Shown one piece after another: positions 720 to 25,139 of a stretch of 48,457 bases of DNA. The stretch spans positions 1 to 48,457 of the forward strand of contig CAVPLM010000026.1 of assembly GCA_963706025.1 (NCBI GenBank), given 5' to 3'. The stretch comes from an uncultured Actinomycetes bacterium. GTDB taxonomy: Bacteria; Actinomycetota; Thermoleophilia; RBG-16-64-13. Made by a program: the position numbers and the translations under genes. Numbering within the stretch: position 1 is the first letter of the stretch; each line of letters opens with the position of its first letter. Below the pieces are notes generated by a model that did no database searches, was not told the origin of the DNA, and saw nothing but the letters and a program-made list of their open reading frames with translations.

Positions 720-1192
720 TCACAGGTTCGTGCTGGACTGATCTCGCACCTCCGCGACCGCTCGACCAGAGCCTCACCGTCGAGCACCATTTCCATCATA
801 CTGATCTGCTCTTCCCAAACAGCCGGATCGGCTTCAGCTTTGATGGCTTCATCGAATACATGGTAGACGGGGAGTCCCAACGAGACTCCTGCCAATGGGC
901 CTGCGAAGGTCGGGTCGCCAGCGGTAACGGTTTCGGCATAAAGCCCGGCTCCTTCGGCGTCGGCCGAACCGAGCAGCACGATCACGTTCTCAGCGCCGTA
1001 TTTCTCGGCGGCGTCGATCACGCGCTGCTGGTTCTGCAGGTCCATCGCTCCTGCCGCCGTTCAGACGAAGCATTCCGTGGCCGAAAACACCACCTCGGCT
1101 CCGCTGCCGGCAAAGCAGGCCTCCATGGCAGGGCTCGGAACTCCGTCCCGCTCCCCCAGGAGAATCAACTTCTTGCCTGACAACTTGCCCAT
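720..1192 (-). CDS. grdA: Glycine/sarcosine/betaine reductase selenoprotein A (Sec at codon 44)
   Basis: AGGAGG RBS and ATG at 1192. Reads [26 protein letters not shown]...SATECFV-UGA(1063-1061)[14 protein letters not shown]...[27 protein letters not shown], with the classic CxxU motif. One missing base near 760 restores ...[15 protein letters not shown] (TGA 722-720), about 157 aa. Confidence 0.95.
1036..1054 (-). promoter_or_regulatory. Candidate SECIS hairpin of grdA
   Basis: Starts 6 nt after the UGA: GCAGG-agcgatgga-CCTGC, a 5-bp stem with a G-containing loop. Weaker than the grdB element. Confidence 0.45.
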
Positions 1193-1234
1193 TCTTCACC
1201 TCCTCATGAGAAACACTTGATGCTGTTGCATCAG

Positions 1235-1562
1235 TTACGAAAGAAGCCGCTCCGCTCCCGCGCGGATGGCTTCCAGAGTCACCTGCTCGCCGGTGATCCG
1301 CTCCTTCTGCTTCTCCCCCTGTATAGAAGAGAAAGGTCGGAACTCCCATCACCTTGAGGGTCATGGCAAGCCGGCGGTTCTCCATGACATTGAGTCTTGC
1401 CGAACTTGACTTTCTCCTCGTATTCCTCAGCCAGGGCTTCGACATCGGGCATCAAGGCAAGACAAGGGCCGCACCTGGGTCCCCAGAGGTCCACCACGAC
1501 GGGCTAGTTCACTCTCATGCACGTTCCGCTTCAAAATTCTCCGCATTGATAGTGAAGTCCAT
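1235..1562 (-). CDS. trxA: Thioredoxin of the Grd cluster (apparent indels)
   Basis: Assembled across frames: MDFTINAENFEA..VVDLWGPRCGPCLALMPDVEALAEEYEEKVKFGK-LNVMENRRLAMTLKVMGVPTFLFY...ERITGEQVTLEAIRAGAERLLS*. CGPC active site; lies between grdD and grdA. Confidence 0.88.
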
Positions 1563-1608
1563 GGAACTGATCTCCGCTCTCGGGTATGTCGACCTGTAAC
1601 GCCACCCC

Positions 1609-2773: not shown

Positions 2774-2775
2774 CC

Positions 2776-4315
2776 TCAAGTCGCTTTCCGCAGCGACTCG
2801 GCAAGTTCGCTCAAAGCATCCAGCAGGACGTTTTTCACTTCATCACGGGTGAGGCCGCCGGCCGGTTTGCCCGACGGTGCTTCCACAAGGAAGGATGCTC
2901 CGTCGGAAAGGTTGGTCAGTCGAGCCAGGAAGAGACTGCCTTTGCCAATGATCATGGCGCGCTTGCATGGCGCCCGAGGCAATGGCGTCGACGGCGTGAC
3001 CGAGAAAGGGAACGCCCGACGGAATGTGCCCTTGGGTGGGGGCGAAGCCGATGACTCCGCGCTTGGCAACGAAATCGCTGATGGCTGTGCGCTCCAGTTG
3101 TCCCTTCATGACCGCGAGGGCCGCGATCATCTTCGCGTTGGCCTCGGCAACGTCGCCGGCTCCCGCGGGAAGCGGTGATCTCGGAGATATGGAGCTCGGC
3201 CGCGTACTTGTCCACATCGGCGAATCTGCAGGCCGGCCTTCTGCAAGGGGTCCCACACCAGGGCGGTGGTCACGGCCTGGGGCGAAGCGCCGGCTCCGAC
3301 CGAGTGCTTTCCCAAGGCGTCGAGGCGGATGACCGGGGTCGTCCCATCGTCGGGAGTGAGCAGCACAGCAAAGTTGCCCAGGCAGGATTCCAGGGCAGGG
3401 AGTCCTTTCTTCACGTGCTCGCGGGCATTCATGAAGAGCTTGGGCAACGCGCCACCGGCCAGCACAACCACGTTCTTCCGTGCGCCGGAAGCCACGAGAG
3501 CGGCGCCGGTGATCAGAGCGTTCACCGGAGCCGCGCAGAAAGCACGGACATCGAGGCCGCTTGCATTGACACAGCTGGCACTCTCGGCAATGGCCTTCGC
3601 GAAATTGCCGCCGCCGCGCTGGTTCATGTCTCCCGCTGCCTCTTCTGAGCATTCGATCACGAAGTCGATCTCGTCAGGACTGAGACCGGAATTCGTGCAA
3701 CAGATGGAAGAGAGCAAGCAGACCACCCGCCTTGCTGGCCAGGTTCTCCAGCAGGACGTGAGCCGACAGCGCCTCGTCGACTTCGTGGCCCCGGCGGCAG
3801 CAACCGACCACCTGACCGTCGAAGTAGAGCGGGAGCGCTGCGTGCGTGGCGATCTCTTCGAGAATGGCGGAATGGTCCACGCCAGGCTTCATGCGCTTGA
3901 CGACGTCGGCGGGAAGAACCGGATGGGCAAGAAGTTTGTCTCGGACCGACGCTGCGAATCCTGCCTCGAGCCAGATGAGATCGAAGACGTCGCAGATGTC
4001 CATCAGGCCCAGGAACTCATCCTCGGGCATGATCTCGCCGTACTTCCCAAATCGAGTAGTTGAGGCCGCGAGGTTGGCATGCCACGGGCGAGGTTCCGAC
4101 TGCAGTTGCTCGATGGTCATAGAGCCTATGTAGGCCAGATTCGGAGCGTATCGAGCTGCTTCCTCGTAAGATTGGACGAGGTCTGAGAGTTGGTCGAGAA
4201 ACGGTGAGTCAGGTACGTTCCGGCGCTCTAGAAAGGGGGTCGTGCCGTAGCTGAGGCCAAGCTCGGGTGTGTGATTAAGGCAGTAGGCAACGCTTTTTAC
4301 GGCTGCATTCGGCAT
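2776..4315 (-). CDS. grdC: Glycine reductase component C subunit beta (FabH-like; apparent indels)
   Basis: MPNAAVKSVAYCLNHTPEL..YGTT; GEIMPEDEFLGLMDICDVFDL; LSAHVLLENLASKA; IECSEEAAGDMNQRGGGNFAKAIAE; GAGDVAEANAKMIAALAV; GFAPTQGHIPSGVP; MIIGKGSLFLARLTNLSDGASF. Confidence 0.92.
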
Positions 4316-4418
4316 ACCATTGATTCCCTCATCGTTCAACAACCTTTCAGGCGCCCATCTGTCGCTCGAGATTCAAGGCCGCAGTCGAAGGGTCTCGCAA
4401 TCAGGCTTCTCTTCAACG

Positions 4419-5744
4419 TCAGTCGAACGGGAACAGCCGCTGTTCGCTAACGTCAGTCTGAAGCGCCTCCAGGGCCTTCTCCACAATGCTACGACGCAGT
4501 TCTTTCTCCTTTGGCATGTTCAGAGCCGGATTCCCGAGCGGATATGCGACGCCTGCGCCCGGAACGATACGGTGGGGCCCCACCATCAGCGCCACGGACG
4601 TCAGCGGAGTTATGACCGCAGTCGCCAGCCCGGACCTCTCAATCTCCACTGCTATCGCTGACCCGCAGCGAGTGCTGGTACCTCAGGTGCCGGTCAGGAT
4701 CACTGCTTCTATCTTCTCATCTCGCAACTGAGCAGCGATCTCCCGTCCCATCCTGCTGCAGGCCTCAAGGTTACCGGCACAACCGCAGGTGGAGTAGAAG
4801 TGCTCTCCGAGTTTGCCTATGACATGCTCTCGTTCCAGGTCGCGAAGGACGTCGAGGGGAATGAGCCGGTTTGGGTCTCGCATGATCGGGCAGTTGTCAT
4901 ATCCGGCGTGCACCACTTCCCAATCGGCTGGGTCGAACGTGCTCAGCTCTTCGATGCTATATCGGCCGTATCTAGTGGCTGTGAGCCTTTCGATCTCATC
5001 TGGGTTGCCTTTTGGCACCAGCCCACCGTCTGTGACGATCCCTATCTTGGCACTGGAGATGTCCTTGATCGCTGCGGGCGGTTCGACGCGCACAAACTTA
5101 GGCAGAGCCAACTCCGTTTCGAAGGGTTGTCCCGCCAGCCTGGCCAGCATCATATCTACGGCACGCTTCGCAGCAATGGTGTCGACCATGATCCTTTTTT
5201 GCAGACCTCTCGGAATATAGCCTTCCTCCGCAGGCAGGCCGATATCCTGCCCGGTGACCATCTTGTAGGCAAGGTCAACCATCTTGGCTGTCGCGTCTGT
5301 CATACCCCTGGCAGAATCTGTGGTCTTGACGATATGCAGACTCCTTCGGTACATGTCCGCCCCGGGGTTTTCAGGATACATCCCGGTCACGGCGGGAATC
5401 ATCAGTTCCTCACGGACCAGGCTGCATACTGTGCCGCAGGCTATGCCGTAGCGTCCGGCGTTGAAGGCAGGTCCGGCCAAGACCAGATCTGGGCGGTAAG
5501 GCGCGATAAGTCCAACGACTTCCCGCGCGGTTTTGGCGGAATCCAAACCGGCGTAGTCATCGCCGCATATCACGGTGGCGACGATGTGTCCGTCAATGTT
5601 CCTGCTCTTCAAGGCATTGTGGACAGCAATACCGGGCCCAACCGGCCCCTCTTTGACCTGTGGAGACGTCATTGCCTTGTCTTCGCCGCCTATGCCGCCG
5701 AAGAACTGATTAACGTAATGAACGATTCGCAAGGATTGGCCCAT
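4419..5744 (-). CDS. grdB: Glycine/sarcosine/betaine reductase family selenoprotein B (Sec at codon 354), divergent
   Basis: AGGGAG RBS and ATG at 5744: MGQSLRIVHYVNQFFGGIGGEDKA...GPAFNAGRYGIACG...GGLVPKGNPD...HAGYD...VILTGT-UGA(4685-4683)-GTSTRCGSAIAVEIERSG...FPFD*. In-frame readthrough joins ORFs 4683..6128 and 4419..4649 into 441 aa with no indels. Subtype (GrdB/F/H) not assignable. Confidence 0.93.
4655..4671 (-). promoter_or_regulatory. SECIS-like hairpin of grdB
   Basis: UGA-ggtaccagcac-TCGCTG-cgggt-CAGCGA: a 6-bp stem whose G-rich apical loop starts 17 nt after the UGA, consistent with bacterial SECIS geometry. Confidence 0.7.
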
Positions 5745-5787: not shown

Positions 5788-7047
5788 TCAGACTCGCTGC
5801 GATTTGATCTTCCATCCCCCAGTACGCTCAATGCATCGGCGACGCGGTAACCGACCACGGTAATCTGGCCGGTTGAGGGCACGTCGTTGACGGTCTCTCC
5901 CCCGATGGCCCTCTCGACGGGAGGTAGTGTGAAAGGTGTGTCGTGTGGACCGACATTAACGATGGCCAAGGCACCAGGTGTGTTGAAGAGCAGAGCGCTA
6001 TCAGACGTTCCGTCGACGGACGTATCCTGGCAGATAACGGTGGTCCGCATGTCCATTTCTTCGCAGGCTTCTACGGTCAAGCCAAGGTCTATGTTGGGCG
6101 CTCCGCCGCCAATCTTGGTCAATATCACGCCCTCTGCGCCAGAATGGTCTTCGCCAGCTTGGCCGCCATCATCGCGTTTCTCTCGTTATCCGGGATATCA
6201 GCAGTGGCAATCATGACCACAATGCCGGCAAAACACAGGTCCTTCCCATGTCTGCGGTATAGCTCGGTCACCAGCGGGTGGTTCTGTATGAAGTACGTCG
6301 ACGCGCACCAATTCCACAGCCCCTGAACGATGGCTCCGTCCAGTATCTCGTTGGGATGGACGAGCGTAGGCAGAAGCTTTGATACTGGGTCGCCGTACAA
6401 GACGGGGCTTTTGGCGAGGCGCTCAGCTGCATGTGGTGGATCTGGTATATGTACGCGATGCGCGGTAGATGCTCGGCGGCCTTCGCTGCTTGCTCGAGCG
6501 TGCCCAGATCGTAGTCCTCCACACTATCTGCATTCTGCCCGAAGCTGGCCTCAGCGAGGTACACAGCAGTCTTCGTCCCCGCGACGGTCAGGGCATACTG
6601 TAGGTCTACCCACTCGATGCCATCCGCCGGGTAACAGTCCAGGACAACGTGGTTGACGGAACCAAAAGGGCTCGCCTGTGAGCCGGGACCGGCCATGTCG
6701 ATCACTGTGCCTCTTATCCCGGACATACGGTCGATGGTCACGACCCCGGCACCGCGAAGGACACGGGTGCGACCATCGCCCGCAGGCTTTATCTCGCCGA
6801 GCACTCCCGGAAAGTTCTCCCCAGTGTCGTCCATCTTGGCCCGCGGCTCAACAACATTATGGACGTTTACCATGCGCAGGTTCTCGCCGGGATGTGCTAA
6901 CTCAATATTCACACAGCTTAAACTCTGATCTTCCGCTACCAAAGTCTGAAGCTCGTCCCGGTTGATGAAGAGAACAGCATCTTTGACTGACGTCTTATCT
7001 CCGAATTGGATGTCCTTAATATTCAGGATATCGAGTTCCAGGTTCAT
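5788..7047 (-). CDS. grdE: Glycine/sarcosine/betaine reductase component B subunit (GrdE/GrdG/GrdI-like), divergent; apparent indels
   Basis: MNLELDILNIKDIQFGDKTSV..., VVEPRAK, G.GRTRVLRG, LLPTLVHPNEILDGAIV, TYFIQNHPLVTELYRRHGKDLCFAG, ILTKIGGGAPNIDL, AIVNVG. Frame shifts near 6420 and 6135, and probably near 5810 (restoring ...GKIKSQRV*). Confidence 0.85.
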
Positions 7048-7116: not shown

Positions 7117-7416
7117 TCATTCGGCGGAGTCCTCCATCGGCCAGTTGTAGACGAATACCTGCTCGCTATCGGTAATGACCCGCTGCCAATCGATGCGGCC
7201 ACGCAGCACCTCACCGCCAATGACCAACGCGTACCCAGGCTTGACTACCTGACCGTCGGTGATCAGGTCAAACAGGGTGCCATCGCCTTCCTTGAGGGTT
7301 GGGGTTCTCAGAGCATCCTCGACGGTAAGCTTCGGCTTGTCTACTCGAACGGCGCGAGCCCGCCATCCCAAGGCCTTTGCAGCCTCGCCGGAGACGATAT
7401 TGAGAATCGCTCTCAA
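7117..7416 (-). CDS. MoaD/ThiS (ubiquitin-like beta-grasp) family-like protein without C-terminal GG
   Basis: 99 aa. The TTG start overlaps the upstream stop (TTGA) and has a GAGGTGG RBS. The pattern LTVEDAL..TL...TLFDLI..G.VKPGYALVIGG......L...ITDSEQVFV resembles MoaD. Ends WPMEDSAE. Confidence 0.55.
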   Translation of the reverse strand: MRAILNIVSGEAAKALGWRARAVRVDKPKLTVEDALRTPTLKEGDGTLFDLITDGQVVKPGYALVIGGEVLRGRIDWQRVITDSEQVFVYNWPMEDSAE

Positions 7417-8249
7417 GGCTGACCACCTCTATGCACGGCGACATCGCCGACGTTGAGGTCCTTGTCGACCTCGATCGGTCCCAGTTCCTTCGTGGCGTAC
7501 CCTTCCTTCTGGATCGAGACTCGATACGTCCCCCGTTCCAGCCCATCGGCCCAGAAATCGCCGAACTCGTCGGTCCGGACGCTCACCTGGGCGTCCTTGA
7601 GACCAAGTTCGAGGGTGACCAGCGCATCCTCGACGACCTCGTCGGCGTCCGGATCGTAGATGGTCGCCGCCGATGAACGTCTTGGGCAGGCCGATGTAGT
7701 AGACCCGTGGCTTACGTGCCAGATCGGGCTGTAGCAGCTTCGGCCTGCGCGATCAGTTCGGCCAACTCTTCTTCTTCGCCGAAGGTGATGGCGCCGGTCG
7801 GGCAGGCCTCGGAACAGCGGGTCTGGGTCCAGCCCTTGTCGAGCAGATGGGCGCAGAAGGTGCACTTCTGGGCGATCCTCAGATCTTCGTTGTAGTAGAT
7901 GACCCCGCCGTAGGGGCAGGCTTCCACACAGTTGTGGCTGCCCTTGCAGACCTGTCGGGTCGATGATGACCGCGCCGTCCGGGCCGCTTGTAGATGGCCT
8001 TCTCCGGGCAGGCCGTTGAGGCAAGGCGCATCGTCGCAGTGCTGGCAGATGGTGTGCTCGTAGGCCACTCTTCACCTTGGGGACCTGGCCCCGCACCTGG
8101 TCGACCACCCTGTTCCAGAACTGGCCGGTGAGCGGCTGGGGTTTGGCGATGGGCGACCAGTCGTTGCCGCAATGCTCGTCCTTGCAGGCGATCTGGCAGT
8201 TGTGGCAGCCGTTGCACTTGGTGATGTCGATGACCATGACCTTGCCCAT
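7413..8249 (-). CDS. 4Fe-4S beta subunit of pyrogallol-transhydroxylase-like Mo/W enzyme, with C-terminal beta-sandwich domain; apparent indels
   Basis: MGKVMVIDITKCNGCHNCQIACKDEHCGNDWSPIAKPQP; CQHCDDAPC; CVEACPYG; KCTFCAHLLDKGWTQTRCSEACPTGAI; C-terminal RTDEFGDFWADGLERGTYRVSIQKEGY. TGATG overlap with the alpha gene. Confidence 0.85.
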   Translation of the reverse strand: MGKVMVIDITKCNGCHNCQIACKDEHCGNDWSPIAKPQPLTGQFWNRVVDQVRGQVPKVKSGLRAHHLPALRRCALPQRPARRRPSTSGPDGAVIIDPTGLQGQPQLCGSLPLRRGHLLQRRSEDRPEVHLLRPSARQGLDPDPLFRGLPDRRHHLRRRRRVGRTDRAGRSCYSPIWHVSHGSTTSACPRRSSAATIYDPDADEVVEDALVTLELGLKDAQVSVRTDEFGDFWADGLERGTYRVSIQKEGYATKELGPIEVDKDLNVGDVAVHRGGQP

Positions 8250-10922: not shown

Positions 10923-12248
10923 CTAGATTACACCAATCGCCTCGATCTCCATCAATGTTTCTGGCCTGTGTAAGCGCGATCTGATGATCGCCGTGGCTGG
11001 TGGCTCTCCAACCAGCGAGGGTGCGTTCACTGTGTAGTAGTCCAGCTCAGCCTCTCTAACGGCGGACAAGTCGCCAATGTCCTTGAGAAAGATATTCACC
11101 TTCAGGATGTTCTCCATGCAACTGCCGGCCTGCTCCATGTACATCTTGATCTTATCCATGGTCACCCGCATCTGGTCCTCCACGGTGGCGGAGGTCTGTT
11201 TGAAGCTCTCCAGTGCCAGTCCCGTGGCACCGGAACAGAAGATCAGTTTCCCGACGACCGCGGAGCGTGAGAACATCGGGTGTCCGGGTGGGACGTGCGG
11301 GTAGGCGAATTTCACACCTCCGTAGTAAGCCGGGTACTTCGTGAGTTCCCAGCCGGGCCTCTCCCTGCAGATGACCCCTATCGCGTCGACCTCGACCAGG
11401 CATCTGGGGTCCTCAAGATCTGCCATGCAGACGGTGCTTGCCGGCGGGTCCGCGGATAGCGAAGCCGTGAATTCTTGGAAATAGAGAGACTCCAACCTAC
11501 GCATGGTGACATAGTGGGCATCCATGTCTTTGAAGTAGTAGCAGGTCTTAATCAGGTTGTTCATCGAGCCCCCGGCCTGGTCCAGATTCATCCTGATCTT
11601 GTCCATCACGACGCGCATCTGCTCTTCGAAGCTGTCGGTCTCTATCTGGCCCGTTTTCACCGAGCGGGCGCTCACATTGTGGCAGAAGATCAGGTTGCCG
11701 ACCGTCGTGACCTTGGAGAACATCGGCTCCCCCGGCTTCGCGCCGGGAAAAGCCTGTTTGAGTCCTGCATAGCGGGCTGGGATCATCCTTGTTTCCCAGT
11801 CTAGGTAGCCTCTAGTCAAGACACCCAGAGCATCGATCTGCACGAGGTAGTCCGGGTCATCGAGAACCGTGACTACGAAGCTCGTTGCCGGCGGTTCTTC
11901 CACCAGAACGGGGGCGTGTTCCTGATAGTAGTCGAACATCGCAGCCCGTACGGGTGCCACATCTTCCCTTTTCCCGACCAGCACGGTGTCCTTGACTATG
12001 TTGTTCATGGAGCTTCCGACTTCCTCCATGGCGGCCCTGACGCTGTCGAGCGCGCAGAAGACCTGCTCTCGGAGCGTTTTCGCCTCCACCACGCCGCTCT
12101 CTACTGACCGGGCGGACATCATGGAGAGAAACACGAGATTGCCGACCACTGCCGCTTTGGAGTTGAAAGGCCTCCCCCGTTCGACATGAGGGTACGCCTG
12201 CCTGACCCCCTTGAAATAGGCAGGATATCTCTTGACCGAGACCTTCAT
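10923..12248 (-). CDS. Single-chain triple-domain Rid/YjgF-family protein
   Basis: 441 aa made of three repeats of about 147 aa, each with YPA/IPA..., VG[NK]L[VI]F, EQ/DQ..., S[MC]-NN/EN-[IL][VIL]K, PPA[TS] and [QE][IV][DE]A[LI]GV. Confidence 0.85.
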   Translation of the reverse strand: MKVSVKRYPAYFKGVRQAYPHVERGRPFNSKAAVVGNLVFLSMMSARSVESGVVEAKTLREQVFCALDSVRAAMEEVGSSMNNIVKDTVLVGKREDVAPVRAAMFDYYQEHAPVLVEEPPATSFVVTVLDDPDYLVQIDALGVLTRGYLDWETRMIPARYAGLKQAFPGAKPGEPMFSKVTTVGNLIFCHNVSARSVKTGQIETDSFEEQMRVVMDKIRMNLDQAGGSMNNLIKTCYYFKDMDAHYVTMRRLESLYFQEFTASLSADPPASTVCMADLEDPRCLVEVDAIGVICRERPGWELTKYPAYYGGVKFAYPHVPPGHPMFSRSAVVGKLIFCSGATGLALESFKQTSATVEDQMRVTMDKIKMYMEQAGSCMENILKVNIFLKDIGDLSAVREAELDYYTVNAPSLVGEPPATAIIRSRLHRPETLMEIEAIGVI

Positions 12249-12720: not shown

Positions 12721-12742
12721 GGTTCACTCTTTGAGCCATATA

Positions 12743-13777: not shown

Positions 13778-13873
13778 CGTGTCTCCAATCTTATCTTCGG
13801 TTCCTGAACGCCCACGTAACCCGGCCACGGGCAACTGCTTCTCTTACGATGAAAAAAGACCCTGGCCCCTCTG

Positions 13874-13942: not shown

Positions 13943-14043
13943 GCACTGCAACCGAGGGCAGGCACCCCCGGAGTTGTGACCCAGGGGAGCCTCATCTTGT
14001 GACTATCGTTGCGCCACCTACCGGCTGAGGAGGTCAAGACGAG

Positions 14044-16073: not shown

Positions 16074-18140
16074 ATGAAGTATGTCGTAGGCGTCGATGTT
16101 GGAGGCACGTTCACTGACCTCGTTGCTATCGATGAACAGGGCCAGACGACTGTCATCAAGTCACCATCCACGCCAGCCAACCCTGGTATGGGCGTAGTCA
16201 CCGCGCTCGAAAAATGTGCCGCAACTTTGGATATGAAACTCGAGGAGTTCCTGCCGGATGTGCTTCGCATCTGTCATGGAACGACCGTGAGCACCAACGC
16301 GATACTCACTCAGAGCGGCGCCAAGATAGGCATGCTGACCACCAAGGGCTTCCGCGACATAACGGACGTGCGCACGGGGATCAGGGAATACGGTTATGAC
16401 TATGCCGTACCCCAGCCGACGCCACTTGCTCCGAGATACCTTCGGGTAGGCATCGAAGAGCGGATCAAGTGGAACGGAGAGGTCCATATACCACTCAATG
16501 AAGAAGAGGTTCGGGAGGCCGTGCGGTACCTGAAAGAACAGGGCGTGGAGGCTATTGCGATCTGTTTTCTCTGGTCTTTCAGGAACCCGGCCCACGAGCA
16601 GCGTGCGGCTGAGATCTGTAGGGAAGAGTGCCCTGGAATCTACATCACCTCCTCCGCTGATGTCCTACCGGAGGTCCGCGAGTACCGGCGTTTTAGCACG
16701 ACGTGCATCAACGCCTATGTGGGACCTGCCCTGGCTAGATATATCACGTATCTCCTCGATGAGCTGCGGAAAGCAGGCTTCACAGAGGAGCTGCTGATCA
16801 CTCAGTCAAGCGCAGGTGTGATGTCTCCCGAAATCGCGTGTGAGCAGGCGATGAGGACCGTTCTTTCGGGGCCCGCCTGCGCTCCGGCGGCCGGCGTGTA
16901 TACGGGGCGGCTATATGGCATCGACGACCTGATAACCACCGATATGGGGGGTACGAGTTTCGATGTCACCCTCATCAAGGACGGGAAACCATGGATGACG
17001 GATGAGACCAAGGTGGCGCAGGTGTATGCCATCAGGTTGCCCATGGTCGACGTCTGGACAGTGGGCGCGGGAGGCGGAAGCATCGCTTGGCTAGGAAAAG
17101 GAAACTCGCTGCACGTGGGTCCGCAGAGCGCGGGAGCGACGCCTGGCCCGGCTGCCTATCTGAAGGGCGGGAGGGAGCCCACCACCACTGATGCCGACTT
17201 CGTGTTGGGTTACCTCAACCCAGACTTCTACCTTGGCGGGGAATTCCCGGTCAGCCTCGACCTGGCACGACAATCGATCAAGGAGAGGATCGCCGATCCC
17301 CTTGGAATCGATGTGGCCGAGGCAGCCAGGTCTATGGTGAAAATCCTCAATAGCGCCATGGTGGATGCTATCTCGGCAGTCTCGGTGAGGAGAGGCGAAG
17401 ATCCCCGGAGATACACCATGGTAGCTGCCGGAGGAGCGGGACCGGTACACGCTCCGGCACTGGCCAGGGCGCTGCGGATGCGCAAAATAATCATACCGAG
17501 GCTCTCTTCTGTGTTCTGCGCAATGGGAGGCGTTATCTCCGACCTGCGGCATGACTTCGTTAGAACTGTGAACTGGCGAACCAACGTGGTGAGCTACGAT
17601 GCGCTCAACCAGGTGTATGAAGAGCTTGAGCAAGAGGCTCATCAACTCCTCAAGAGGGAGGGCATCCCACTAAGCGATCGCTACTTCAAACGCACGGCCG
17701 ACATGAGGTATGTGGGGCAGTTCCATGAGGTCGACGTCGATGTTCCTAATGAGAAGCTGGGAACGGAGCAGATGAAGGAAGTCATCACACATTTCAATGA
17801 GAAACACGAAACAATGTACGCCTACCGCGACACTGTTGAAACCGAGATCATGAACGTCAGGGTGGCCGGTTTCGGCCGAGTAGTCAAGATGTCTCTGAAA
17901 GAGTACCCGTATAGCAGTGAAGATGCTCGCATGTATCAAAAAGACACGCGGGACGTGTTCTTCGAGGAAGCGGATGGCTTTGTCGCGACCCCAATCTACG
18001 ACGGTGACGCGATGCAATATGGTAATTCAGTGCACGGACCGGCAGTCATCGAACAGAAGATCACCACCATCGCTGTTCCCCCTGGATTCTCCATCGAAGT
18101 GGGTAAGTATGGCGACTACATAATGGAGGTCCCGGAATGA
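16074..18140 (+). CDS. hyuA: Hydantoinase/oxoprolinase A subunit (ATP-binding)
   Basis: VGVDVGGTFTD, HGTTVSTNA, TTKGFRD, LSGPA, DMGGTSFD, GAGGGSIA, GPQSAGATPGPA, GGAGPVHA, MRYVGQFHE. Confidence 0.92.
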   Translation: MKYVVGVDVGGTFTDLVAIDEQGQTTVIKSPSTPANPGMGVVTALEKCAATLDMKLEEFLPDVLRICHGTTVSTNAILTQSGAKIGMLTTKGFRDITDVRTGIREYGYDYAVPQPTPLAPRYLRVGIEERIKWNGEVHIPLNEEEVREAVRYLKEQGVEAIAICFLWSFRNPAHEQRAAEICREECPGIYITSSADVLPEVREYRRFSTTCINAYVGPALARYITYLLDELRKAGFTEELLITQSSAGVMSPEIACEQAMRTVLSGPACAPAAGVYTGRLYGIDDLITTDMGGTSFDVTLIKDGKPWMTDETKVAQVYAIRLPMVDVWTVGAGGGSIAWLGKGNSLHVGPQSAGATPGPAAYLKGGREPTTTDADFVLGYLNPDFYLGGEFPVSLDLARQSIKERIADPLGIDVAEAARSMVKILNSAMVDAISAVSVRRGEDPRRYTMVAAGGAGPVHAPALARALRMRKIIIPRLSSVFCAMGGVISDLRHDFVRTVNWRTNVVSYDALNQVYEELEQEAHQLLKREGIPLSDRYFKRTADMRYVGQFHEVDVDVPNEKLGTEQMKEVITHFNEKHETMYAYRDTVETEIMNVRVAGFGRVVKMSLKEYPYSSEDARMYQKDTRDVFFEEADGFVATPIYDGDAMQYGNSVHGPAVIEQKITTIAVPPGFSIEVGKYGDYIMEVPE

Positions 18141-19912
18141 GCACCGCTGAGTTCAAATTCCAGTCGCATCCTGCTGACTTCGAGATTCTATATGCTGCTG
18201 TCAAGAACTTTACGCTCGAGATGGGCATCACCATGGAGAGGACGTCAAGGGCTCCTATCTACTTTGCCGCCCATGATTTCTCTACGGCCATCTTCGATAG
18301 AGACGGCTACCTGGTAACTCTGAGTGAGTACATTCCGATTCACATCTGTGCCGCATCGTTCGCGGTCAAGGCTGCCCTGAAGACCTTCGGAGATGACCTT
18401 CATCCCGGAGACATCATTCTGACGAATGACCCCTACACTCTGGACGCCGGCAATCACCTGGCAGACTGGTCGATCCTCGTCCCCGTGTTCTTCGAGGACA
18501 AGCTTTGGTTCTGGTCGGTCAACCGCGCGCACCAAATGGATACCGGTGGAGGTCAGACCGGTGCCTACAACCCCAACGCCCAAGACATCTTTGCCGAGGG
18601 AGTGCGGATACCACCCTTGAAGATATTCGAGGGAGGCAAGGTGAGGCAGGACGTCTTCGACTACGTGCTTGCCAACGTGCGTTTTCCTGAGTCCCAGCGG
18701 GGTGATCTCTGGTCGATGATTGGTTCGGCAAAGGTTGGCGAGAGACGTCTAGTTGGCCTGATGGACATGTGGAACGCTGAGACCATCGAGAAGTTTCTGA
18801 CCGATCTGTATGCCTACACAGAATTCCTGATGCGGGAGGAGATCAAGAAGGTGCCTGATGGCACCTACTACGGCGAGACATACAGCGATGGTAAGCCCGG
18901 TGTAGGCCCGCCGGTCGCTCTGCGCTGCAAGACCACAGTCAGACATGACAGCATAACCATCGATCTCAGCGACACGGATCCCATAATCGACTATTACATC
19001 AACAGTACAGTTGCAAACACTTATAGCAGCGTATTTGTTGCCCTTATGACCTCTATTGGGAGGACCATTCAGTACCGCTCTGAAGGAGTTATGAAAGCTG
19101 TTGAGATCATTACCAAACCGGGTACCCTGGCCCATGCAACGTATCCTGCTCCTGTCGGTCTCTGCACCCTGTACGTTGCAAAACAGCTGATAGAAGTCGT
19201 CTGGGACTCACTGTCCAATGTTACTCCTGAGAAGATCCCGGCTGGATGGGCGGGCTTCGCGGGGTTCACCATCAGCGGCGTCGATCCCAGGCGGAACGAG
19301 GGCTATGCCACCCCCGATTTCTTGGCCAACACGGGTGGCGCCGGAGCCATTTGGGGAACGGACGGATGGCATGCTGGATCGAGCCCTATCTCTGCCGGCG
19401 GCCTCACCTTTCCAGAGATCGAGATCTGTGAGTCGATCTATCCCGCCCTGTGGACGAAATGGGAGCTTACGCCCGATTCGGCGGGACCTGGGAGATGGCG
19501 GGGGGGATGCGGCATGGAGAGTACCTTTGTGCTGGAAGCGGATGCGATGTACCTGTGTCACCAAGGGGAGCATTTCACTACGCTTCCGTCCCCCGCTGTC
19601 GCGGGTGGCTACCCTCCTCCTGACTTCAGTAAGCAGGTTTTCTACCGTCAGAATGGCACTGTCGAAGAAGGTGGAGGGCAGTACTACGTTTTGAACCGAG
19701 GCGAAGAACTTCAGTGTTTGTGCCAGGGTGGATGTGGTGTTGGTGATCCTCTGGAGAGAGATGTTCTCAGCGTGTGTGAGGACGTGCGTAACGAATTCGT
19801 ATCCGTGGACAGGGCAGCAGGAGACTATGGCGTCGTTCTTGATCCCACTACTTTGGAGGTGGACAATGAATCGACGCTGAAGCTCAGAGAGAGGGGGGGG
19901 ATGTCGACCTGA
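18137..19912 (+). CDS. hyuB: Hydantoinase/oxoprolinase B subunit
   Basis: ATGA overlap with A. HDFSTAIFD, PGDIILTNDPY, NHLAD, AHQMDTGG, IFAEGVRIPPLKI, DSAGPGRWRGGCG, GGCGVGDPLERD. Confidence 0.92.
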   Translation: MSTAEFKFQSHPADFEILYAAVKNFTLEMGITMERTSRAPIYFAAHDFSTAIFDRDGYLVTLSEYIPIHICAASFAVKAALKTFGDDLHPGDIILTNDPYTLDAGNHLADWSILVPVFFEDKLWFWSVNRAHQMDTGGGQTGAYNPNAQDIFAEGVRIPPLKIFEGGKVRQDVFDYVLANVRFPESQRGDLWSMIGSAKVGERRLVGLMDMWNAETIEKFLTDLYAYTEFLMREEIKKVPDGTYYGETYSDGKPGVGPPVALRCKTTVRHDSITIDLSDTDPIIDYYINSTVANTYSSVFVALMTSIGRTIQYRSEGVMKAVEIITKPGTLAHATYPAPVGLCTLYVAKQLIEVVWDSLSNVTPEKIPAGWAGFAGFTISGVDPRRNEGYATPDFLANTGGAGAIWGTDGWHAGSSPISAGGLTFPEIEICESIYPALWTKWELTPDSAGPGRWRGGCGMESTFVLEADAMYLCHQGEHFTTLPSPAVAGGYPPPDFSKQVFYRQNGTVEEGGGQYYVLNRGEELQCLCQGGCGVGDPLERDVLSVCEDVRNEFVSVDRAAGDYGVVLDPTTLEVDNESTLKLRERGGMST

Positions 19913-20050
19913 TGGGGTGGGGTGCAAGGGTCCCAATCGATGTAAGAGCTGCCAACTCGGGGAGGTTTGTTTTACGGGCATCGTTGTGGGATGAGCAGTG
20001 CGTCCGGGCTGTCCACGGGGAAGCCACCTTATATAAGAATGGGGAAGGAC

Positions 20051-21526
20051 ATGTCGACTGAAGAGAATCGCCCTACCGAAAACTCGAGTTCATTGAGGAG
20101 CCGGACCGTTAGCCGCCGAGAGTTCCTGAAGGTCGCCGGCATCGCCGGGGCCGCGCTGGGGGCAGGCGCCGGCCTAGGCGGCCTACTGACCGCGTGCGGC
20201 GAGGAAGAAACCACCACCACGACGGCGGGAGCGAGTACCACGACGACGGCGGGAGCGAGTACCACGACGACGGCGGGAGCGAGTACCACGACGGTCAGTA
20301 CCGCCGCTGAAGTGGGCCGGGAGATCAAGATCGGCTTCGTCGAGCCGGTGACCGGGCCGTTGGCGCCGTTTGGCGTACCCAGCGCGTACTGTAGGGACCG
20401 CTTCGAGGAGGCCGTCGCGGACGGGTTGGTCTGTGGTGACGGCAAGAACCACCCGATCAAAGTCATCAGTGTAGACACTCAGTCCGACACGAACCGGGCC
20501 TCCCAGGTGACGGCAGACCTGATTCTGAACGACAAGGTCGACATCGTCACCGCTGCCTCGACGTCAGATGTGGTCGAACCGTCGGCCGATCAGTGCGAGG
20601 CCCTGGGGATGCCCTTCATATCGACGGACGACCCATGGGAGCTTTTCGTCTTCAACCGCGGAGGCGACCCGGTCGCGGGGTTCAAGTGGACGTACCATGT
20701 CTTCTGGGGCATCGAGGATCAGCCCCCGAGCTTCATGGACATGTGGACTCACATCGAGACGAACAAGGTCGTGGGAGGGCTGTGGTCCAACAGCGCCACA
20801 GGCAACGGGATCAGGCCGATATGGACGGAAATACTGGCCGAGAATGGGTACACACTAGTCGACGGGGGGGCCTTTCCCGAGAATATGGAGGACTTCAGCT
20901 CCATCATCTCCATGTTCAAAGAAGGTGGGGTAGAGATCATCGAGGGTGGTATTACCAATATTCCGGACTGGACCAATTTCTGGAAGCAGGCCGTTCAGCA
21001 GGGACTCAGGGACCAACTGAAGATCGCGACTATCGGTGGAGCCCTCCTCTTCCCAGACACGGTTGAATCACTCGGGGAAATCGCCTACGGACTGAGCTCT
21101 GAGAATTGGTGGACACCGCGGAATCCGTACAAGCTGTCCCTCACCGGCGAAACCTGTCAAGAGTTCGCCGACGAGTTCGAAAGACGCAACAATCGTCAGT
21201 GGTCTCCTCCTCTGTTGCACATTATCGTGCTGGAGATCGCGGCCGACGTGTTCAAGAGGACCGCAGACCTCGATGATAAAGAGGCTGTCCTTGCGTCGCT
21301 CAAGACCACCAAACTTGAGGATAGCATTGTCGGCCCGGTCGACTTCACTGCCCCGGTGCAGATGGGCACTCTGCACCCGACACCCAACGTGGTCAAGTCG
21401 CAGCAGGCGGGTATCCAGTGGGTCAAAGGTGAGAAGTGGCCCTTCGACATGCGCATTTGCAGCAATGTGCGCGCTCCCCTAGTTCCGGTGGAGAGTAAAC
21501 TGCTGCCGCTGCAAGAGTTCTATTGA
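20051..21526 (+). CDS. Tat-exported lipoprotein, Leu/Ile/Val-type (class 6) ABC solute-binding protein
   Basis: SRREFLK twin-arginine motif, LTAC lipobox, Thr-rich linker, then IKIGFVEPVTGPLAPFG, DTQSDTNRA and PWE...FKWTYHVFWG. AAGGAC RBS before ATG 20051. Confidence 0.88.
   Translation: MSTEENRPTENSSSLRSRTVSRREFLKVAGIAGAALGAGAGLGGLLTACGEEETTTTTAGASTTTTAGASTTTTAGASTTTVSTAAEVGREIKIGFVEPVTGPLAPFGVPSAYCRDRFEEAVADGLVCGDGKNHPIKVISVDTQSDTNRASQVTADLILNDKVDIVTAASTSDVVEPSADQCEALGMPFISTDDPWELFVFNRGGDPVAGFKWTYHVFWGIEDQPPSFMDMWTHIETNKVVGGLWSNSATGNGIRPIWTEILAENGYTLVDGGAFPENMEDFSSIISMFKEGGVEIIEGGITNIPDWTNFWKQAVQQGLRDQLKIATIGGALLFPDTVESLGEIAYGLSSENWWTPRNPYKLSLTGETCQEFADEFERRNNRQWSPPLLHIIVLEIAADVFKRTADLDDKEAVLASLKTTKLEDSIVGPVDFTAPVQMGTLHPTPNVVKSQQAGIQWVKGEKWPFDMRICSNVRAPLVPVESKLLPLQEFY
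20219..20293 (+). repeat. 24-bp tandem repeat x3 encoding a TTAGASTT linker
   Basis: ACGACGGCGGGAGCGAGTACCACG occurs three times in exact copies. Confidence 0.9.
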
Positions 21527-21810: not shown

Positions 21811-22665
21811 ATGAAGTTATACGTTCTCGACTGCGGCCAGATCTGGGTGGAGAAAGGGTTTCTCTGGCACTTCGGCGACCAGACCCTTACCGGCAAGGAA
21901 TACGAGGCGGGGCCCTTCGGCATCCGCAACTGCCAGTACTTCATCGACCACCCCAAGGCCAAGATCGTCTTCGACCTGGGCTTCACCAAGGAGGACTGGC
22001 GCGGGTTCGTCGGCTTCCCCCACCGCAAAGGTCCGGAGGGCGTCCACTTCGCACAGGCCCCCGACCAGAACCCCATCGCTCAATTGGCCAAGATCGGGGT
22101 GAAGCCCGAGGACGTCGACTACGTGGTCATCTCCCACCTTATGAGCGAGCACGCCGGCTACCTGCCCGCCTTCGCCGGCACCAAGGCCAAGATAGTCGTG
22201 CAAGAGCAGGAGAGGGACTACGCCGACCGCATCGGAGTGCCGCCCCGGCTGGGAGATGAGCCGGCTGTGGAGCAGTTCCACTCTTGGATGTACATGCGTA
22301 AGCTCTACGAAGTGCCCGGCCTCGACTTCATGTACATCAACGGTGACTACCAACTGGTGGGCAAAGACGTAGAGATCCTGTCCCTGCCTGGGCACACTCC
22401 CGGGTTCCAGAACGTCATGGTCCGTCTTCCCAAGACCGGTCCCGTCTTCCTCTCCGCGTGTGAGACCCGAGGCATGTACTATGACATCCCCGTCAACGGA
22501 TACGCCCCCGGCATTCCCCATGCCTTCACCTGGTCGGCGGCCGGGGAGCTGCACAGCTTCAAGCGAGTGCTGAAGCTGGTGGAGCAGGAAGAGGGCCAGA
22601 TCTTCTTCGGCCACGACCTGGAGCAGTTCCTCAGTCTGAAGGCGGCACCGGAGTTCTACGACTGA
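21811..22665 (+). CDS. AHL-lactonase-like metallo-beta-lactamase-fold protein with altered metal ligands
   Basis: KLYVLDCG, YFIDHPKAKIVFDLG, QLAKIGVKPEDVDYVVISHLMSEHAG, PGHTPG, IFFGHD. Confidence 0.82.
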   Translation: MKLYVLDCGQIWVEKGFLWHFGDQTLTGKEYEAGPFGIRNCQYFIDHPKAKIVFDLGFTKEDWRGFVGFPHRKGPEGVHFAQAPDQNPIAQLAKIGVKPEDVDYVVISHLMSEHAGYLPAFAGTKAKIVVQEQERDYADRIGVPPRLGDEPAVEQFHSWMYMRKLYEVPGLDFMYINGDYQLVGKDVEILSLPGHTPGFQNVMVRLPKTGPVFLSACETRGMYYDIPVNGYAPGIPHAFTWSAAGELHSFKRVLKLVEQEEGQIFFGHDLEQFLSLKAAPEFYD

Positions 22666-22837
22666 GCCGCATGATTGAGCTTGAGTTCTTGGTCTACATA
22701 CTTGCGAATATGGCGGTCACAATGTCTCGCAGGCCAAGCGCCTGAAAGACGCCCGGCTTCTCCCCGTCGGCTGGGCGCAATACGGGAGCGAGGAGCAAGC
22801 GCGGACGAGCGCGGACCGAGGAATCTGATGGCCGAAT

Positions 22838-23806
22838 ATGGTTGACGAGCTCTGGCCGAGCATCTTTCGAATGGAGGTTCCCCTTCCCGGAAATCCCCTG
22901 AAGGCTGTGAACTCCTACCTCGTTCGCGGCACCGATCGCTCGCTGCTGATTGACACCGGCATGCATTGCCGTGAGTGCCTTGCGGCCATAGAGACGGGGC
23001 TGAGCGGACTCGGGATTCCGATAGAGCGTGTCGATTTCTTTCTCACCCACTTCCATCCAGATCATATCGGACTCGTGCCGGAGTTGGCGCAGGATGGCGC
23101 CCGGGTTTATATCAGCCGTCCGGATGCCGCAATCATTCAGGAGCCAGAGAAGTGGAAGAGCCTGGCTGGCGAAGCGCTTCTCAACGGCCTTCCCAAGAAG
23201 GATGTGCGGGCGGTCATGGCGGAATTCCCCGCTCGCAGCCGCCTTGGTGTGCCGACTTTGGGATTCACCCTGTTGGGGGACGGCGAGCGGCTCTCCTGCG
23301 GACCGTACGTCTTCACGTGCATTGGGACCCCGGGACACACACGGGGTCACCTTTGTCTCTACGAGGCTCGGGCGAGGATTCTATTCTCAGGAGATCACGT
23401 GCTGGGCGGCATTACACCCAACATTTCCGGATGGTCGTATGAGGGTGACGCCTTGCGCGACTACCTGGACAGCCTCGACAAAGTGGACCAGTATGAGACC
23501 GACTGGGTGTTTCCCGGACACCGGGCGCTTTTTCGGGACCTGGGGCGGCGGATCTACCAGATAAAGAGACATCACGAGGCGCGCTTGGATGAGGTCCTCT
23601 CGGTCCTTGCCAATGGGCGCCAGACAGCTCTTGAAGTGGCTTCACGGATGACTTGGGGAATCCGTTCGTCGAGCTGGGATGCCGTTCCCTCTCTACAGAA
23701 ATGGTTCGCGGGGGGGGAGGCGCTGGCCCATCTCGAGTATCTGCGCGGTCAGGGGCGAGCTAACAGAGAAGTGCGCGAAGATAAGGCTTTGTTCGGCCTG
23801 ACGTGA
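22838..23806 (+). CDS. Metallo-beta-lactamase-fold hydrolase (LACTB2-like, C-terminal wHTH)
   Basis: VPLPGNPLKAVNSYLV, LIDTG, THFHPDHIG, TPGHTRGH, SGDHVL, FPGH, EALAHLEYL. Confidence 0.88.
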   Translation: MVDELWPSIFRMEVPLPGNPLKAVNSYLVRGTDRSLLIDTGMHCRECLAAIETGLSGLGIPIERVDFFLTHFHPDHIGLVPELAQDGARVYISRPDAAIIQEPEKWKSLAGEALLNGLPKKDVRAVMAEFPARSRLGVPTLGFTLLGDGERLSCGPYVFTCIGTPGHTRGHLCLYEARARILFSGDHVLGGITPNISGWSYEGDALRDYLDSLDKVDQYETDWVFPGHRALFRDLGRRIYQIKRHHEARLDEVLSVLANGRQTALEVASRMTWGIRSSSWDAVPSLQKWFAGGEALAHLEYLRGQGRANREVREDKALFGLT

Positions 23807-23933
23807 ATCGTGGCAATCGGCGCGGAGAACCTTCCACCGTGGTTGGTCTCTGAGCCGACTTCGAACCCTGTGCGCGATCGGTGCAGATCGTAGAGTGCTG
23901 ACGCTGCAAGTCGCGCGGGAGGGAGTGTGAAGA

Positions 23934-25139
23934 GTGAGAGTCCTCGTTCTGAACTGCGGCAGCTCATCGATCAAGTACCAACTTCACGATGCCGCCACTC
24001 ACGGCACGCTGGCGCGAGGCCTGGTCAGCCGCATCGGGGAGGAAGGTTCGCGGATCGACGCCCAGACGGGAGACCTGAAGCAGAGCCGGGAGATGGCCAT
24101 CCCCGGCCACGGGCGGGGACTCGAGTTGATCCTGGAGTCTCTCCTCGATCCGCAAGCGAAAGTACTGAAGGACGTGTCCGAGATCTCGGCGGTCGGCCAT
24201 CGCGTGGTGCACGGGGGGAGTTTCTTTAGCGCCCCTGCTCTCCTGACCTCGGAGGTGATTGCAAAGATCGAAGAGTGCGCTCCTCTGGCGCCCCTGCACA
24301 ACCCGCCGATCCTGCTAGGCATAGGCGAGTCGCTTCGCATTCTCCCGGACACTCCCCAAGTCGCCGTTTTCGACACGGCATTCCATACCACCATCCCAGC
24401 AGAGGCGCATGTGTATGCATTGCCGTACGAGTACTACGGCGCCTATGGAGTGCGGCGCTACGGCTTTCACGGCATATCCTTTCAGTCGGTCAGTCAGAGA
24501 ACGAGCGCCTTGCTCGGCGGCAGGCTGTCCGAACTCAGGGTCGTGATCGCTCACCTGGGAAACGGGGCGAGCATCACGGCCGTCAATGGCGGCAGATCCG
24601 TCGACACCAGCATGGGAATGACACCGCTCGAGGGCTTGGTGATGGGCACCAGGCCAGGAGACCTCGATTCTGGGGTCATCCTGTTCATGATGCGGCAATT
24701 GGGGCTTTCGGCTGGCGATGTTGATCGCGTCCTCAACAAGGAAAGTGGCCTGTTGGGCGTATCGGGCATCGGCAACGACATGCGCGACGTGCTCGCACAG
24801 GCGGCGACGGGCGACAAGCGCTGTCAGCTGGCGCTTGCCCTGTATTCGTATCGGGTCAAGAAATACATCGGCGCGTATGCGGCCGCGATGGGCGGTCTCG
24901 ACGCGGTGGTGTTCACCGCCGGGGTGGGCGAGAATAGCCCGGAGATCCGGGCGGCGGTGTGCGAGGGCCTATCCTTCCTTGGCATCGAACTGGACGCCGA
25001 CACCAATGTCGGTGTGCGGGGGGTGGAGTGCGACATCAGCGCCGCGGGTTCGAGAGTACGCGTTCTGGTTGTGCCCACAGATGAGGAACGCTTGATCGCT
25101 GAAGAGACTGTTGCCGCGTTATGCCGATGCCCCTCATAA
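23934..25139 (+). CDS. ackA: Acetate kinase
   Basis: VLVLNCGSSSIKYQL, GHRVVHGG, LAPLHNP, VFDTAFH, RRYGFHG, HLGNGAS, DTSMGMTPLEGLVMGTR, FTAGVGEN, PTDEE. Confidence 0.96.
   Translation: MRVLVLNCGSSSIKYQLHDAATHGTLARGLVSRIGEEGSRIDAQTGDLKQSREMAIPGHGRGLELILESLLDPQAKVLKDVSEISAVGHRVVHGGSFFSAPALLTSEVIAKIEECAPLAPLHNPPILLGIGESLRILPDTPQVAVFDTAFHTTIPAEAHVYALPYEYYGAYGVRRYGFHGISFQSVSQRTSALLGGRLSELRVVIAHLGNGASITAVNGGRSVDTSMGMTPLEGLVMGTRPGDLDSGVILFMMRQLGLSAGDVDRVLNKESGLLGVSGIGNDMRDVLAQAATGDKRCQLALALYSYRVKKYIGAYAAAMGGLDAVVFTAGVGENSPEIRAAVCEGLSFLGIELDADTNVGVRGVECDISAAGSRVRVLVVPTDEERLIAEETVAALCRCPS

Follow-up and report, generated by a model that had tools for sequence, protein, structure and literature searches.

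Does a gene cluster that places a selenocysteine-dependent reductase of the glycine reductase (Grd) type among genes for a molybdenum (Mo) enzyme and a ring-opening hydrolase encode a single pathway, and if so, what would that pathway consume? To our knowledge, the characterized Grd enzymes act only on glycine, sarcosine, and betaine, with proline serving the related Prd enzyme, and uncultured high-GC soil bacteria are not known for Stickland-type chemistry. The stretch of DNA analyzed here (the window) is an entire 48,457-base contig (C26) of an uncultured actinomycete whose genome assembly (G000; 3.66 Mb, 64% GC, 30 contigs) has a completeness of 92% and a contamination of 7.3%. A first-pass annotation of the window had proposed that positions 720–25139 hold an undescribed catabolic cluster ending in a non-canonical Grd enzyme, and all the gene classes that it named are indeed present there. 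Our own reading, to which we give an even chance of being correct, is that this island encodes one pathway in which the non-canonical Grd enzyme is functionally coupled to a hydantoinase-type pair (HyuA and HyuB, together HyuAB), to MBL-fold hydrolases, and to a cytoplasmic Mo enzyme resembling pyrogallol transhydroxylase (PGTH) together with a small ThiS-like protein.

A Grd enzyme outside the canonical families

The intact grdB gene (4419–5744, minus strand) matches PF07355 over model positions 2–347 of 347 (E = 4e-137) and encodes a selenoprotein, with an in-frame TGA codon for selenocysteine (Sec, U) at 4683–4685 within the motif T-G-T-U-G-T-S-T-R-C. The same TGA is kept in the homologous locus L103 of genome G041 (also numbered G291), from another genus of the family that includes G000, and every class-level homologue has one TGA. 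GrdB scores far above the cutoff of the broad subfamily model TIGR01918 (496.9 against 65) but falls below the cutoffs of all three specific NCBIfam models, namely those for the glycine (TIGR01917, 464 against 602), sarcosine (GrdF, NF040794, 517 against 800), and betaine (GrdH, NF040795, 438 against 775) enzymes. When ten reference GrdB sequences were scored with TIGR01917 as controls, all seven from the canonical (Clostridia) side passed (625–783 bits), and none of the three from the side of the window did so (357–547 bits).

A FastTree phylogeny led to the same placement. Its 121 rows comprised the window, 109 locus high-scoring segment pairs covering more than 400 query residues, the L103 read-through, and 10 of the 120 listed database matches; shorter or fragmented segment pairs such as L124 were omitted. 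The window groups with L103 and P0002–P0005, the latter with 71–83% GrdB identity (support 100), and this group is nested in a 27-row clade (support 99) with L003–L009, L101, sequences from Thermodesulfobacteriota/Geobacter, and a Sumerlaeota sequence, separate from the 81-row side that contains Clostridia. Three residues after Sec, the 27-row clade has Ser (U-G-T/S-S; U-G-T-S in the window), whereas canonical GrdB has Cys (U-G-T-C). The string TSTCGTCTRCGA is found in 77 of the 121 rows, and further variants also keep U-x-x-C; judged from this alignment, a Cys at that position would be a defining feature of canonical GrdB.

The grdE-like gene for the substrate-specific subunit (5790–7047, minus strand; PF09338 on 6403–7047, 206.8 bits) departs from the canonical form as well. 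The site is SGNCVSAC in six of six canonical sequences and GLWNWCAS in the proteins of the window and L103, with a Cys that is present but displaced; seven other non-canonical GrdE proteins have no Cys there. Self-cleavage at the Asn-Cys site of GrdE gives a pyruvoyl group, and GrdI, the betaine partner, is unprocessed and lacks that group. If this role of the pyruvoyl group holds, the amine chemistry of the present clade may differ, which we treat as a lead only. On the evidence of model scores, phylogeny, and active-site motifs, neither GrdB nor GrdE belongs to the canonical families for glycine, sarcosine, or betaine. The first-pass annotation, which had called the system non-canonical and named the canonical glycine/sarcosine clade as the place where GrdB should not fall, was borne out on both counts.

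The remainder of the Grd set is present. The grdA gene for selenoprotein A (752–1183, minus strand) matches PF04723 with one TGA (E = 2.5e-72) and the GRDA model with 247.9 bits when that codon is read as U; the motif is C-F-V-U, of the CxxU type, with the TGA at 1061–1063. The genes grdC (2781–4353; tblastn frames agree), grdD for the PlsX-like protein C subunit (1595–2833; PF02504 on the piece 1896–2288), and a trxA-like thioredoxin gene (1238–1503; tblastn frames -2 and -3; PF00085 on the piece 1396–1503, E = 7.8e-8), all on the minus strand, complete the set after frameshift correction. G000 has a single GrdB and a single GrdA, and it contains tRNA-Sec, SelA, and SelB for Sec decoding. An Rfam search of positions 1–26000, which covers riboswitch and Sec insertion sequence (SECIS) families, gave no match at E <= 1 except two chance eukaryotic matches.

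Three features of the wider clade were noted along the way. The GrdE partners of U-x-x-S GrdB proteins lack the canonical Asn-Cys site in the alignments of L003–L009, L101, and L108–L123. In several of the Thermodesulfobacteriota members of the 27-row clade, AckA directly follows grdA. Loci L118–L120, on Dehalococcoidia/SAR202 contigs, each have two or three GrdB-GrdE pairs around one GrdC-GrdA set, an arrangement in which several B components, each with its own substrate, may draw on a common A/C core.

Frameshifts in the minus-strand arm

In transcription order, the minus arm consists of genes for an IclR regulator, a TatD remnant, a triple Rid protein, Mo alpha, Mo beta, the ThiS/MoaD-like protein, GrdE, GrdB, GrdC, GrdD, TrxA, and GrdA. 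The single direction of this run, as first annotated, is confirmed, but six of its genes, as assembled, do not form open frames, a point that the first-pass annotation had missed. Approximately 42 frameshifts break Mo alpha, Mo beta, GrdE, GrdC, GrdD, and TrxA. The shifts were counted by frameshift-aware dynamic-programming alignment of intact relatives to the DNA, for which the references were paralogues from the same genome for the Mo subunits (C5:768250–771036 for alpha, C17:41466–42296 for beta), L004 for GrdE, and L012 for GrdC and GrdD. Mo alpha has 21 shifts (15 extra bases and 6 missing; 550 of 867 residues identical to the reference) and Mo beta has 6, all of them extra single bases (169/274 identical). 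GrdE lacks three bases, near 6411, 6142, and 5813 (180/417 identical). There are 5 shifts in GrdC, one of which, at 4338 near the start, may be alignment noise (261/522 identical), 6 in GrdD (188/404 identical), and at least 1 in TrxA, which is split near 1400 over two frames. GrdB, GrdA, the triple Rid gene, and 11 kb of the plus arm are free of breaks.

Such damage could be real, in which case this would be a decaying pseudogene operon whose Grd pathway no longer functions. The clustering of the shifts in six genes of one arm is what decay might produce. Moreover, broken and intact stretches are equal in homopolymer density, and most junctions lie away from long runs, so that simple homopolymer errors were rejected as the cause. 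At 33–35 kb of the window, a native Mo-oxidoreductase gene is also frame-broken; so is its 96.5% identical copy in the same-genus genome G003, and the two copies differ by 8 single-base indels in approximately 2 kb. Nevertheless, none of the five aligned genes (all but TrxA) has an in-frame stop after correction, identity to intact paralogues or orthologues is high (63–86%), and corrected GrdE ends in KIKSQRV-stop exactly where its homologues end. Extra bases make up 21 of the 27 frameshifts in the Mo genes, unlike natural decay, which is deletional. Locus L103 has similar breaks in the same genes at other positions (GrdB 4, GrdE 4, MoA 10). Finally, the sole leuS gene of G000 (C5:6790–9453) is divided among at least two frames (0, 1, 0), with rpoB, rpoC, ileS, and valS whole, and thus the patchy indel errors reach an essential gene too.

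Because corrected genes are without in-frame stops and leuS is split in like manner, we favor assembly error, which the sequences make much more likely than pseudogenization, although it is not proven. The lack of any nonsense codon, together with the surplus of inserted bases in the Mo genes, speaks against decay, which we think very unlikely. The island is a real and probably functional catabolic unit. More generally, frame-broken operons in long contiguous assemblies of metagenome-derived genomes need not be pseudogenes.

A PGTH-like Mo enzyme precedes grdE

Upstream of grdE lie the two genes of the Mo enzyme. The best match of Mo alpha (8252–10861, minus strand) in the PDB is the large subunit of PGTH (4v4c, E = 5e-34, against 9e-9 for dimethyl sulfoxide reductase). 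Its DSWEGW motif aligns to PGTH residues 174–179, and we take the Ser of this motif to be the Mo ligand. No twin-arginine motif was seen in the N-terminus of Mo alpha. Mo beta (7413–8252, minus strand; PF13247, Fer4_11) is predicted to carry 4Fe-4S clusters and a C-terminal domain.

The stop codon of Mo beta overlaps the start of a 99-residue open reading frame (ORF; 7117–7416, minus strand), and GrdE begins approximately 70 bp after that ORF. The small product had been annotated as MoaD-like, a label that we keep as a lead only: it has no Pfam match, and ThiS is found on 30% and 15% of the members of its nearest ESM-Atlas clusters. Its single-sequence AlphaFold model (pLDDT, the predicted confidence, of 40) is too poor for a fold search, and a word-based homologue search returned the query itself only. 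Homologues do follow MoB in a cluster on contig C19 of G000 (59% identity) and in L103 (42%).

The position of the Mo genes invites the alternative that their product is an electron-input module, which would oxidize or hydroxylate a donor and feed electrons from its Fe-S beta subunit to GrdA, perhaps via the ThiS-like protein or TrxA, in place of thioredoxin reductase. The beta subunit has 4Fe-4S motifs, neither trxB nor grdX was found among the island ORFs scanned, the former being what this role would predict, and in G041 the Mo alpha, Mo beta, and ThiS-like genes sit between grdA and grdE. PGTH, the nearest characterized relative, speaks for a different role in that it catalyzes a net non-redox hydroxyl transfer, and close paralogues of the Mo module on C19 stand without grd genes. 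We hold an electron-input role to be quite improbable and return to the Mo enzyme as a substrate-modifying partner of the Grd enzyme below.

One accessory island holds both arms

The extent of the cluster was established by comparison with G003. By blastn, positions 25482–46824 of the window are 95–98% identical to contig C14 of that genome, and nothing to the left of 25482 has a match in it. Contamination or mis-binning of the contig was rejected on the basis of this same-genus match. Position 25482 thus marks the right edge of an accessory block, and because G003 matches only from there on, bases 1–25481 are assigned, from this comparison, to one accessory catabolic island with both arms and the acetate kinase gene ackA. 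The block is at least 25 kb long, as its left end meets the contig edge. Near that edge, beyond grdA, lies a C-terminal piece resembling a transposase/integrase core (93–404, minus strand; rve_3, E = 7e-4, under the Pfam cutoff). The conserved flank includes a gene for a 1095-residue regulator (27342–30629, minus strand) with Trans_reg_C, AAA_16, and TPR domains.

Recurrence of the linkage in other genomes

A scan of the whole species-genome collection with GrdB-specific peptide words yielded 25 loci, among which only L103 exceeds 55% GrdB identity (84%). At class level, 20 of 401 genomes, G000 included, have GrdB, and only that of G041 is at least 80% identical. A search of 40 relatives gave only four weak partial matches, at 22–27% identity. 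The best of the metagenome GrdB matches listed is 55% identical, and the 83% database relatives are not among them.

In G041, the genes lie on one strand in the order SBP ... MoA'-MoB'-HyuA-HyuB-MBL-GrdC-GrdD-GrdA-MoA-MoB-ThiS-like-GrdE-GrdB, where SBP denotes a solute-binding protein; downstream of the grd run are unrelated dodecin, MFS, and GroES/EL genes. The block MoA-MoB-ThiS-like-GrdE-GrdB is common to both genomes (MoA 736/857 and GrdB 368/441 identical between the window and L103), and the GrdC-D-A block has moved. HyuAB adjoins grd genes in two further contexts. It precedes GrdE-GrdB-GrdC on the metagenome contig L004 (GrdB 55%), which is 1 of 80 metagenome loci listed, many of them short, and it follows GrdA in L152 of genome G044, 1 of 17 further class loci. 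By a PF01968 search, G041 and G044 have one HyuA gene apiece, in both cases the one at the grd locus. G000 has two copies. In the neighborhoods of L101 and L152, only grd is common with the window, plus HyuAB in L152. The juxtaposition on which the first-pass annotation had staked its proposal is not confined to this contig, and its recurrence is partial: the Mo alpha/beta/ThiS-like-GrdE-GrdB block and HyuAB with MBL recur in G041, and the triple Rid gene and the Old Yellow Enzyme (OYE)-type gene do not. By gene content and phylogeny, we describe the system as a Grd-type reductase that belongs to a separate clade and whose partners are new and in part conserved.

Several observations weigh against assigning all these genes to one pathway. 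No close homologue of the triple Rid protein was found in G041, where the best match is 33% identical over 94 residues, and no OYE gene lies within 20 kb of the grd genes there. HyuA and HyuB of G041 are only 36% and 28–30% identical to those of the window, less alike than the window's own paralogue on contig C3 (43%), and the Hyu linkage is therefore not one of simple shared descent. Mo-Grd adjacency occurs in two related genomes only and is absent from the 80 listed metagenome loci, from 24 of the 25 genome loci, and from 17 of the 17 other class loci. G000 itself has at least 15 PGTH-like alpha/beta pairs, approximately 13 or more SBPs, and approximately 9 or more OYEs. Within one of its clusters (L160, C19:62000–74000), MoA is 86% identical (735/857) to that of the window, as close as the L103 copy; there, MoB (N-terminus 93%) and the ThiS-like gene are followed by an OYE gene, and this Mo module, flanked by an SBP gene and another MoA/MoB pair, has no grd genes. 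The sister clades of the window GrdB (Thermodesulfobacteriota, Geobacter) fall under the equivalog cutoff too and may well reduce glycine. SECIS hairpins can be drawn after the UGA codons with energies no better than those of shuffled sequences (z of +1.48 and -1.22). General scans found no N-carbamoylsarcosine amidase, creatinine deaminase/amidohydrolase, or carbamoylase-type gene among the island ORFs, with no dedicated family search made for them.

These points bear on a simpler explanation, namely that the Grd genes specify a U-x-x-S-clade enzyme that is simply a glycine reductase with glycine as its substrate, and that they lie by chance in a shuffling-prone hot spot beside unrelated IclR, SBP, OYE, Mo, and Hyu cassettes. 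The paralogue numbers, the partners that are not kept with grd, and the low Hyu identity between the two genomes are all to be expected if so. In addition, other IclR-SBP-OYE cassettes occupy neighboring positions of the same chromosomal site in the relatives G003 and G001, a truncated TatD remnant in the island (see below) attests to past recombination, and GrdC, GrdD, and GrdA of the window are most like those of Thermodesulfobacteriota loci that have AckA but no Mo or Hyu genes. Chance would not readily place the Mo alpha, Mo beta, and ThiS-like genes inside the grd run of G041 on the same strand, nor the sole HyuA of G041 and the sole HyuA of G044 each beside grd; the overlap of the MoB stop with the ThiS-like start, with GrdE some 70 bp later, likewise argues for a linked unit. 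We rate the chance-neighbor explanation as somewhat unlikely and continue with the single-pathway reading.

Genes of the plus arm and the IclR gap

The plus arm is composed of intact genes with clear Pfam matches, all on the plus strand. The first encodes an OYE/pyr_redox Fe-S flavoenzyme of the OYE/FadH/2-naphthoyl-CoA-reductase type (14044–16005), which lies below NCBIfam equivalog cutoffs, has 6qkg and 1ps9 as its best PDB matches, and resembles 2-naphthoyl-CoA reductase and 2,4-dienoyl-CoA reductase. It is followed by hyuA (16074–18140) and hyuB (18137–19912), with full-length Hydantoinase_A and Hydantoinase_B matches, respectively; by family assignment, the pair belongs to the ATP-dependent hydantoinase/oxoprolinase/lactamase family. 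Against the caprolactamase models, HyuA and HyuB score 707 and 394, under the equivalog cutoff of 1000 for each. HyuA is about equally close to the solved chains 6yra (499 bits) and 7hk5, an N-methylhydantoinase (466 bits).

Next is a Peripla_BP_6 SBP gene (19967–21526), whose product has no PDB relative at E 1e-5 and beside which the island has no permease or ATPase gene. MBL1 (21811–22665), a lactonase-like MBL-fold hydrolase resembling acyl-homoserine lactone lactonases and 4-pyridoxolactonase, a second MBL-fold hydrolase gene (22838–23806), and ackA (23934–25139; PF00871, E = 4e-146) complete the arm.

The IclR-type regulator gene (12971–13834; PF01614 and PF09339) lies between the two arms, as had been described, but it is on the minus strand and heads the minus run, divergent from the OYE gene across a gap at 13835–14043. 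Repeat and promoter scans of 12650–14100 for a shared IclR operator gave weak pairs only, which we did not use as evidence. One imperfect inverted pair consists of GTGTCAAC (12785–12801), upstream of the minus-arm genes, and GTTGACAC (13864–13880, given at 13873), within the IclR-OYE gap; it may be an operator or a chance match.

Between the IclR and Rid genes is the TatD-like metal hydrolase remnant (12280–12723, minus strand), absent from the first-pass annotation, which is 5′-truncated and retains only the last ~120 residues. It shares approximately 75% identity with the corresponding C-terminal part (~120 residues) of a 264-residue TatD_DNase paralogue on C3, its ESM-Atlas leads are amidohydrolase fragments, and the N-terminal (metal-binding) half of TatD does not align anywhere in the window. 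This truncated copy shows that recombination among cassettes of this kind gave rise to the island. The adjoining triple Rid gene (10923–12248, minus strand) is intact and encodes three RidA/YjgF domains (PF01042, three Ribonuc_L-PSP stretches). A separate, native Rid gene (PF01042, 33239–33646, plus strand) directly precedes the Mo-oxidoreductase gene of the flank, which has several paralogues (region 33239–36700); a pairing of Rid with a Mo enzyme therefore recurs in native DNA of the lineage.

A proposed pathway

For the single-pathway reading, we infer an order of steps, a class of substrate, and a link between the two arms. The SBP would bind a small amide or ureide that is cyclic and has an N-CH2-C(=O) unit in its ring, with hydantoin, N-methylhydantoin, creatinine-like, and imidazolone-like compounds as candidates. 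The ring would be modified by the Mo enzyme, through transfer or loss of a hydroxyl group, and may also be reduced by the OYE-type Fe-S flavoenzyme. HyuAB would then open the ring at the expense of ATP, and the product, possibly trimmed by an MBL hydrolase, would be glycine or an N-substituted glycine. GrdEB would pass the carboxymethyl group via Sec to GrdA, GrdCD would free acetyl-phosphate, and AckA would make ATP. What favors a hydantoin- or imidazolone-type ring is that its N-CH2-C(=O) unit gives an N-substituted glycine once the ring is opened; glycine or sarcosine may be the actual substrate of the Grd enzyme.

A second cluster of G000 bears on the N-heterocycle theme. At C3:461000–479000 (L159), the order is SBP-ABC-permease-hydrolase-HyuA-HyuB-Rid-MBL-SBP-Mo hydroxylase-Rid-TatD-IclR, in which the Mo hydroxylase is of the xanthine dehydrogenase type with FAD, 2Fe-2S, and Mo cofactor subunits and the MBL protein is 83% identical to MBL1 of the island. 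By analogy, its make-up fits classical N-heterocycle hydroxylation and ring opening, and the parts that it shares with the island are consistent with such a theme there. The first-pass proposal as a whole is partly supported. A published precedent leads from a hydantoinase to sarcosine reductase (see below).

A more specific form of the proposal is that the U-x-x-S GrdEB pair represents a new Grd specificity, which would reduce the ureido-acid product of HyuAB directly and without a pyruvoyl group. Its substrate would be of the N-carbamoyl-glycine or N-carbamoyl-sarcosine type, or another N-acyl or N-substituted glycine unable to form a Schiff base, and its products would be urea or an alkyl-urea and acetyl-phosphate. 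The Mo enzyme would act beforehand on the hydantoin or imidazolone ring to adjust its hydroxylation, and the whole would amount to a cyclic-ureide fermentation in soil Actinomycetota that needs selenium, molybdenum, and ATP. We put this version forward as a long shot.

What the locus may mean extends beyond either version. A distinct Grd clade that shares one run with a Mo enzyme and stands beside the sole hydantoinase-type genes of two genomes suggests that Grd enzymes serve a further substrate class, and the same grouping suggests that uncultured high-GC soil bacteria may break down N-heterocycles or cyclic ureides anaerobically with conservation of energy.

Comparison with known systems

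The island shares with clostridial glycine reductase, GrdABCDE, a GrdE, a Sec-containing GrdB, a CxxU GrdA, GrdC, GrdD, and TrxA, with AckA nearby. It differs in its GrdB, which is 47–51% identical, under the equivalog cutoff, and of the U-x-x-S instead of the U-x-x-C type, in the lack of the GNC site in its GrdE, and in its Mo-enzyme and HyuAB neighbors. The order grdE-B-C-D-trxA-grdA resembles that of Thermodesulfobacteriota loci.

Betaine reductase offers a parallel in its GrdI subunit, which has no pyruvoyl group, much as the GrdE proteins of the present clade have no Asn-Cys site, and two close GrdB homologues carry the automatic Joint Genome Institute name "betaine reductase". GrdH, however, is the worst-scoring specific model for the window GrdB, and there is no betaine transporter nearby.

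Among Mo enzymes, AthL/BthL of Pelobacter acidigallici, the PGTH of known structure (4v4c), is the closest solved relative of Mo alpha and likewise pairs it with an Fe-S beta subunit that has an extra C-terminal domain. The island enzyme differs in belonging to a set of at least 15 paralogues, in the ThiS-like gene that follows it, and in its location within a grd operon. Among the papers of the library searched, none names both "glycine reductase" and "transhydroxylase". The HyuAB pair resembles caprolactamase CapAB, N-methylhydantoinase, and oxoprolinase in its full-length Hydantoinase_A and Hydantoinase_B domains, with 6yra and 7hk5 as the closest solved chains, and it differs from CapAB in falling under the equivalog cutoffs.

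Tissierella creatinophila and Clostridium sp. FS41 ferment creatinine or N-methylhydantoin by a route that ends in sarcosine reductase (PMC5364220, PMC4417704). As proposed for the island, a hydantoin-type ring is opened in this route and a glycine derivative is reductively cleaved by a selenium-dependent Grd enzyme to acetyl-phosphate, and the highest specific-model score of the window GrdB is that for GrdF, although it lies under the cutoff. In contrast to the island, the genes of those genomes are reported to be in separate clusters, the FS41 hydantoinase is ATP-independent, and no Mo enzyme is reported (PMC5364220, PMC4417704). The creatinine/N-methylhydantoin route to sarcosine reductase is nevertheless the nearest precedent for the island, and in the literature that we found it alone connects a hydantoinase with a Grd enzyme.

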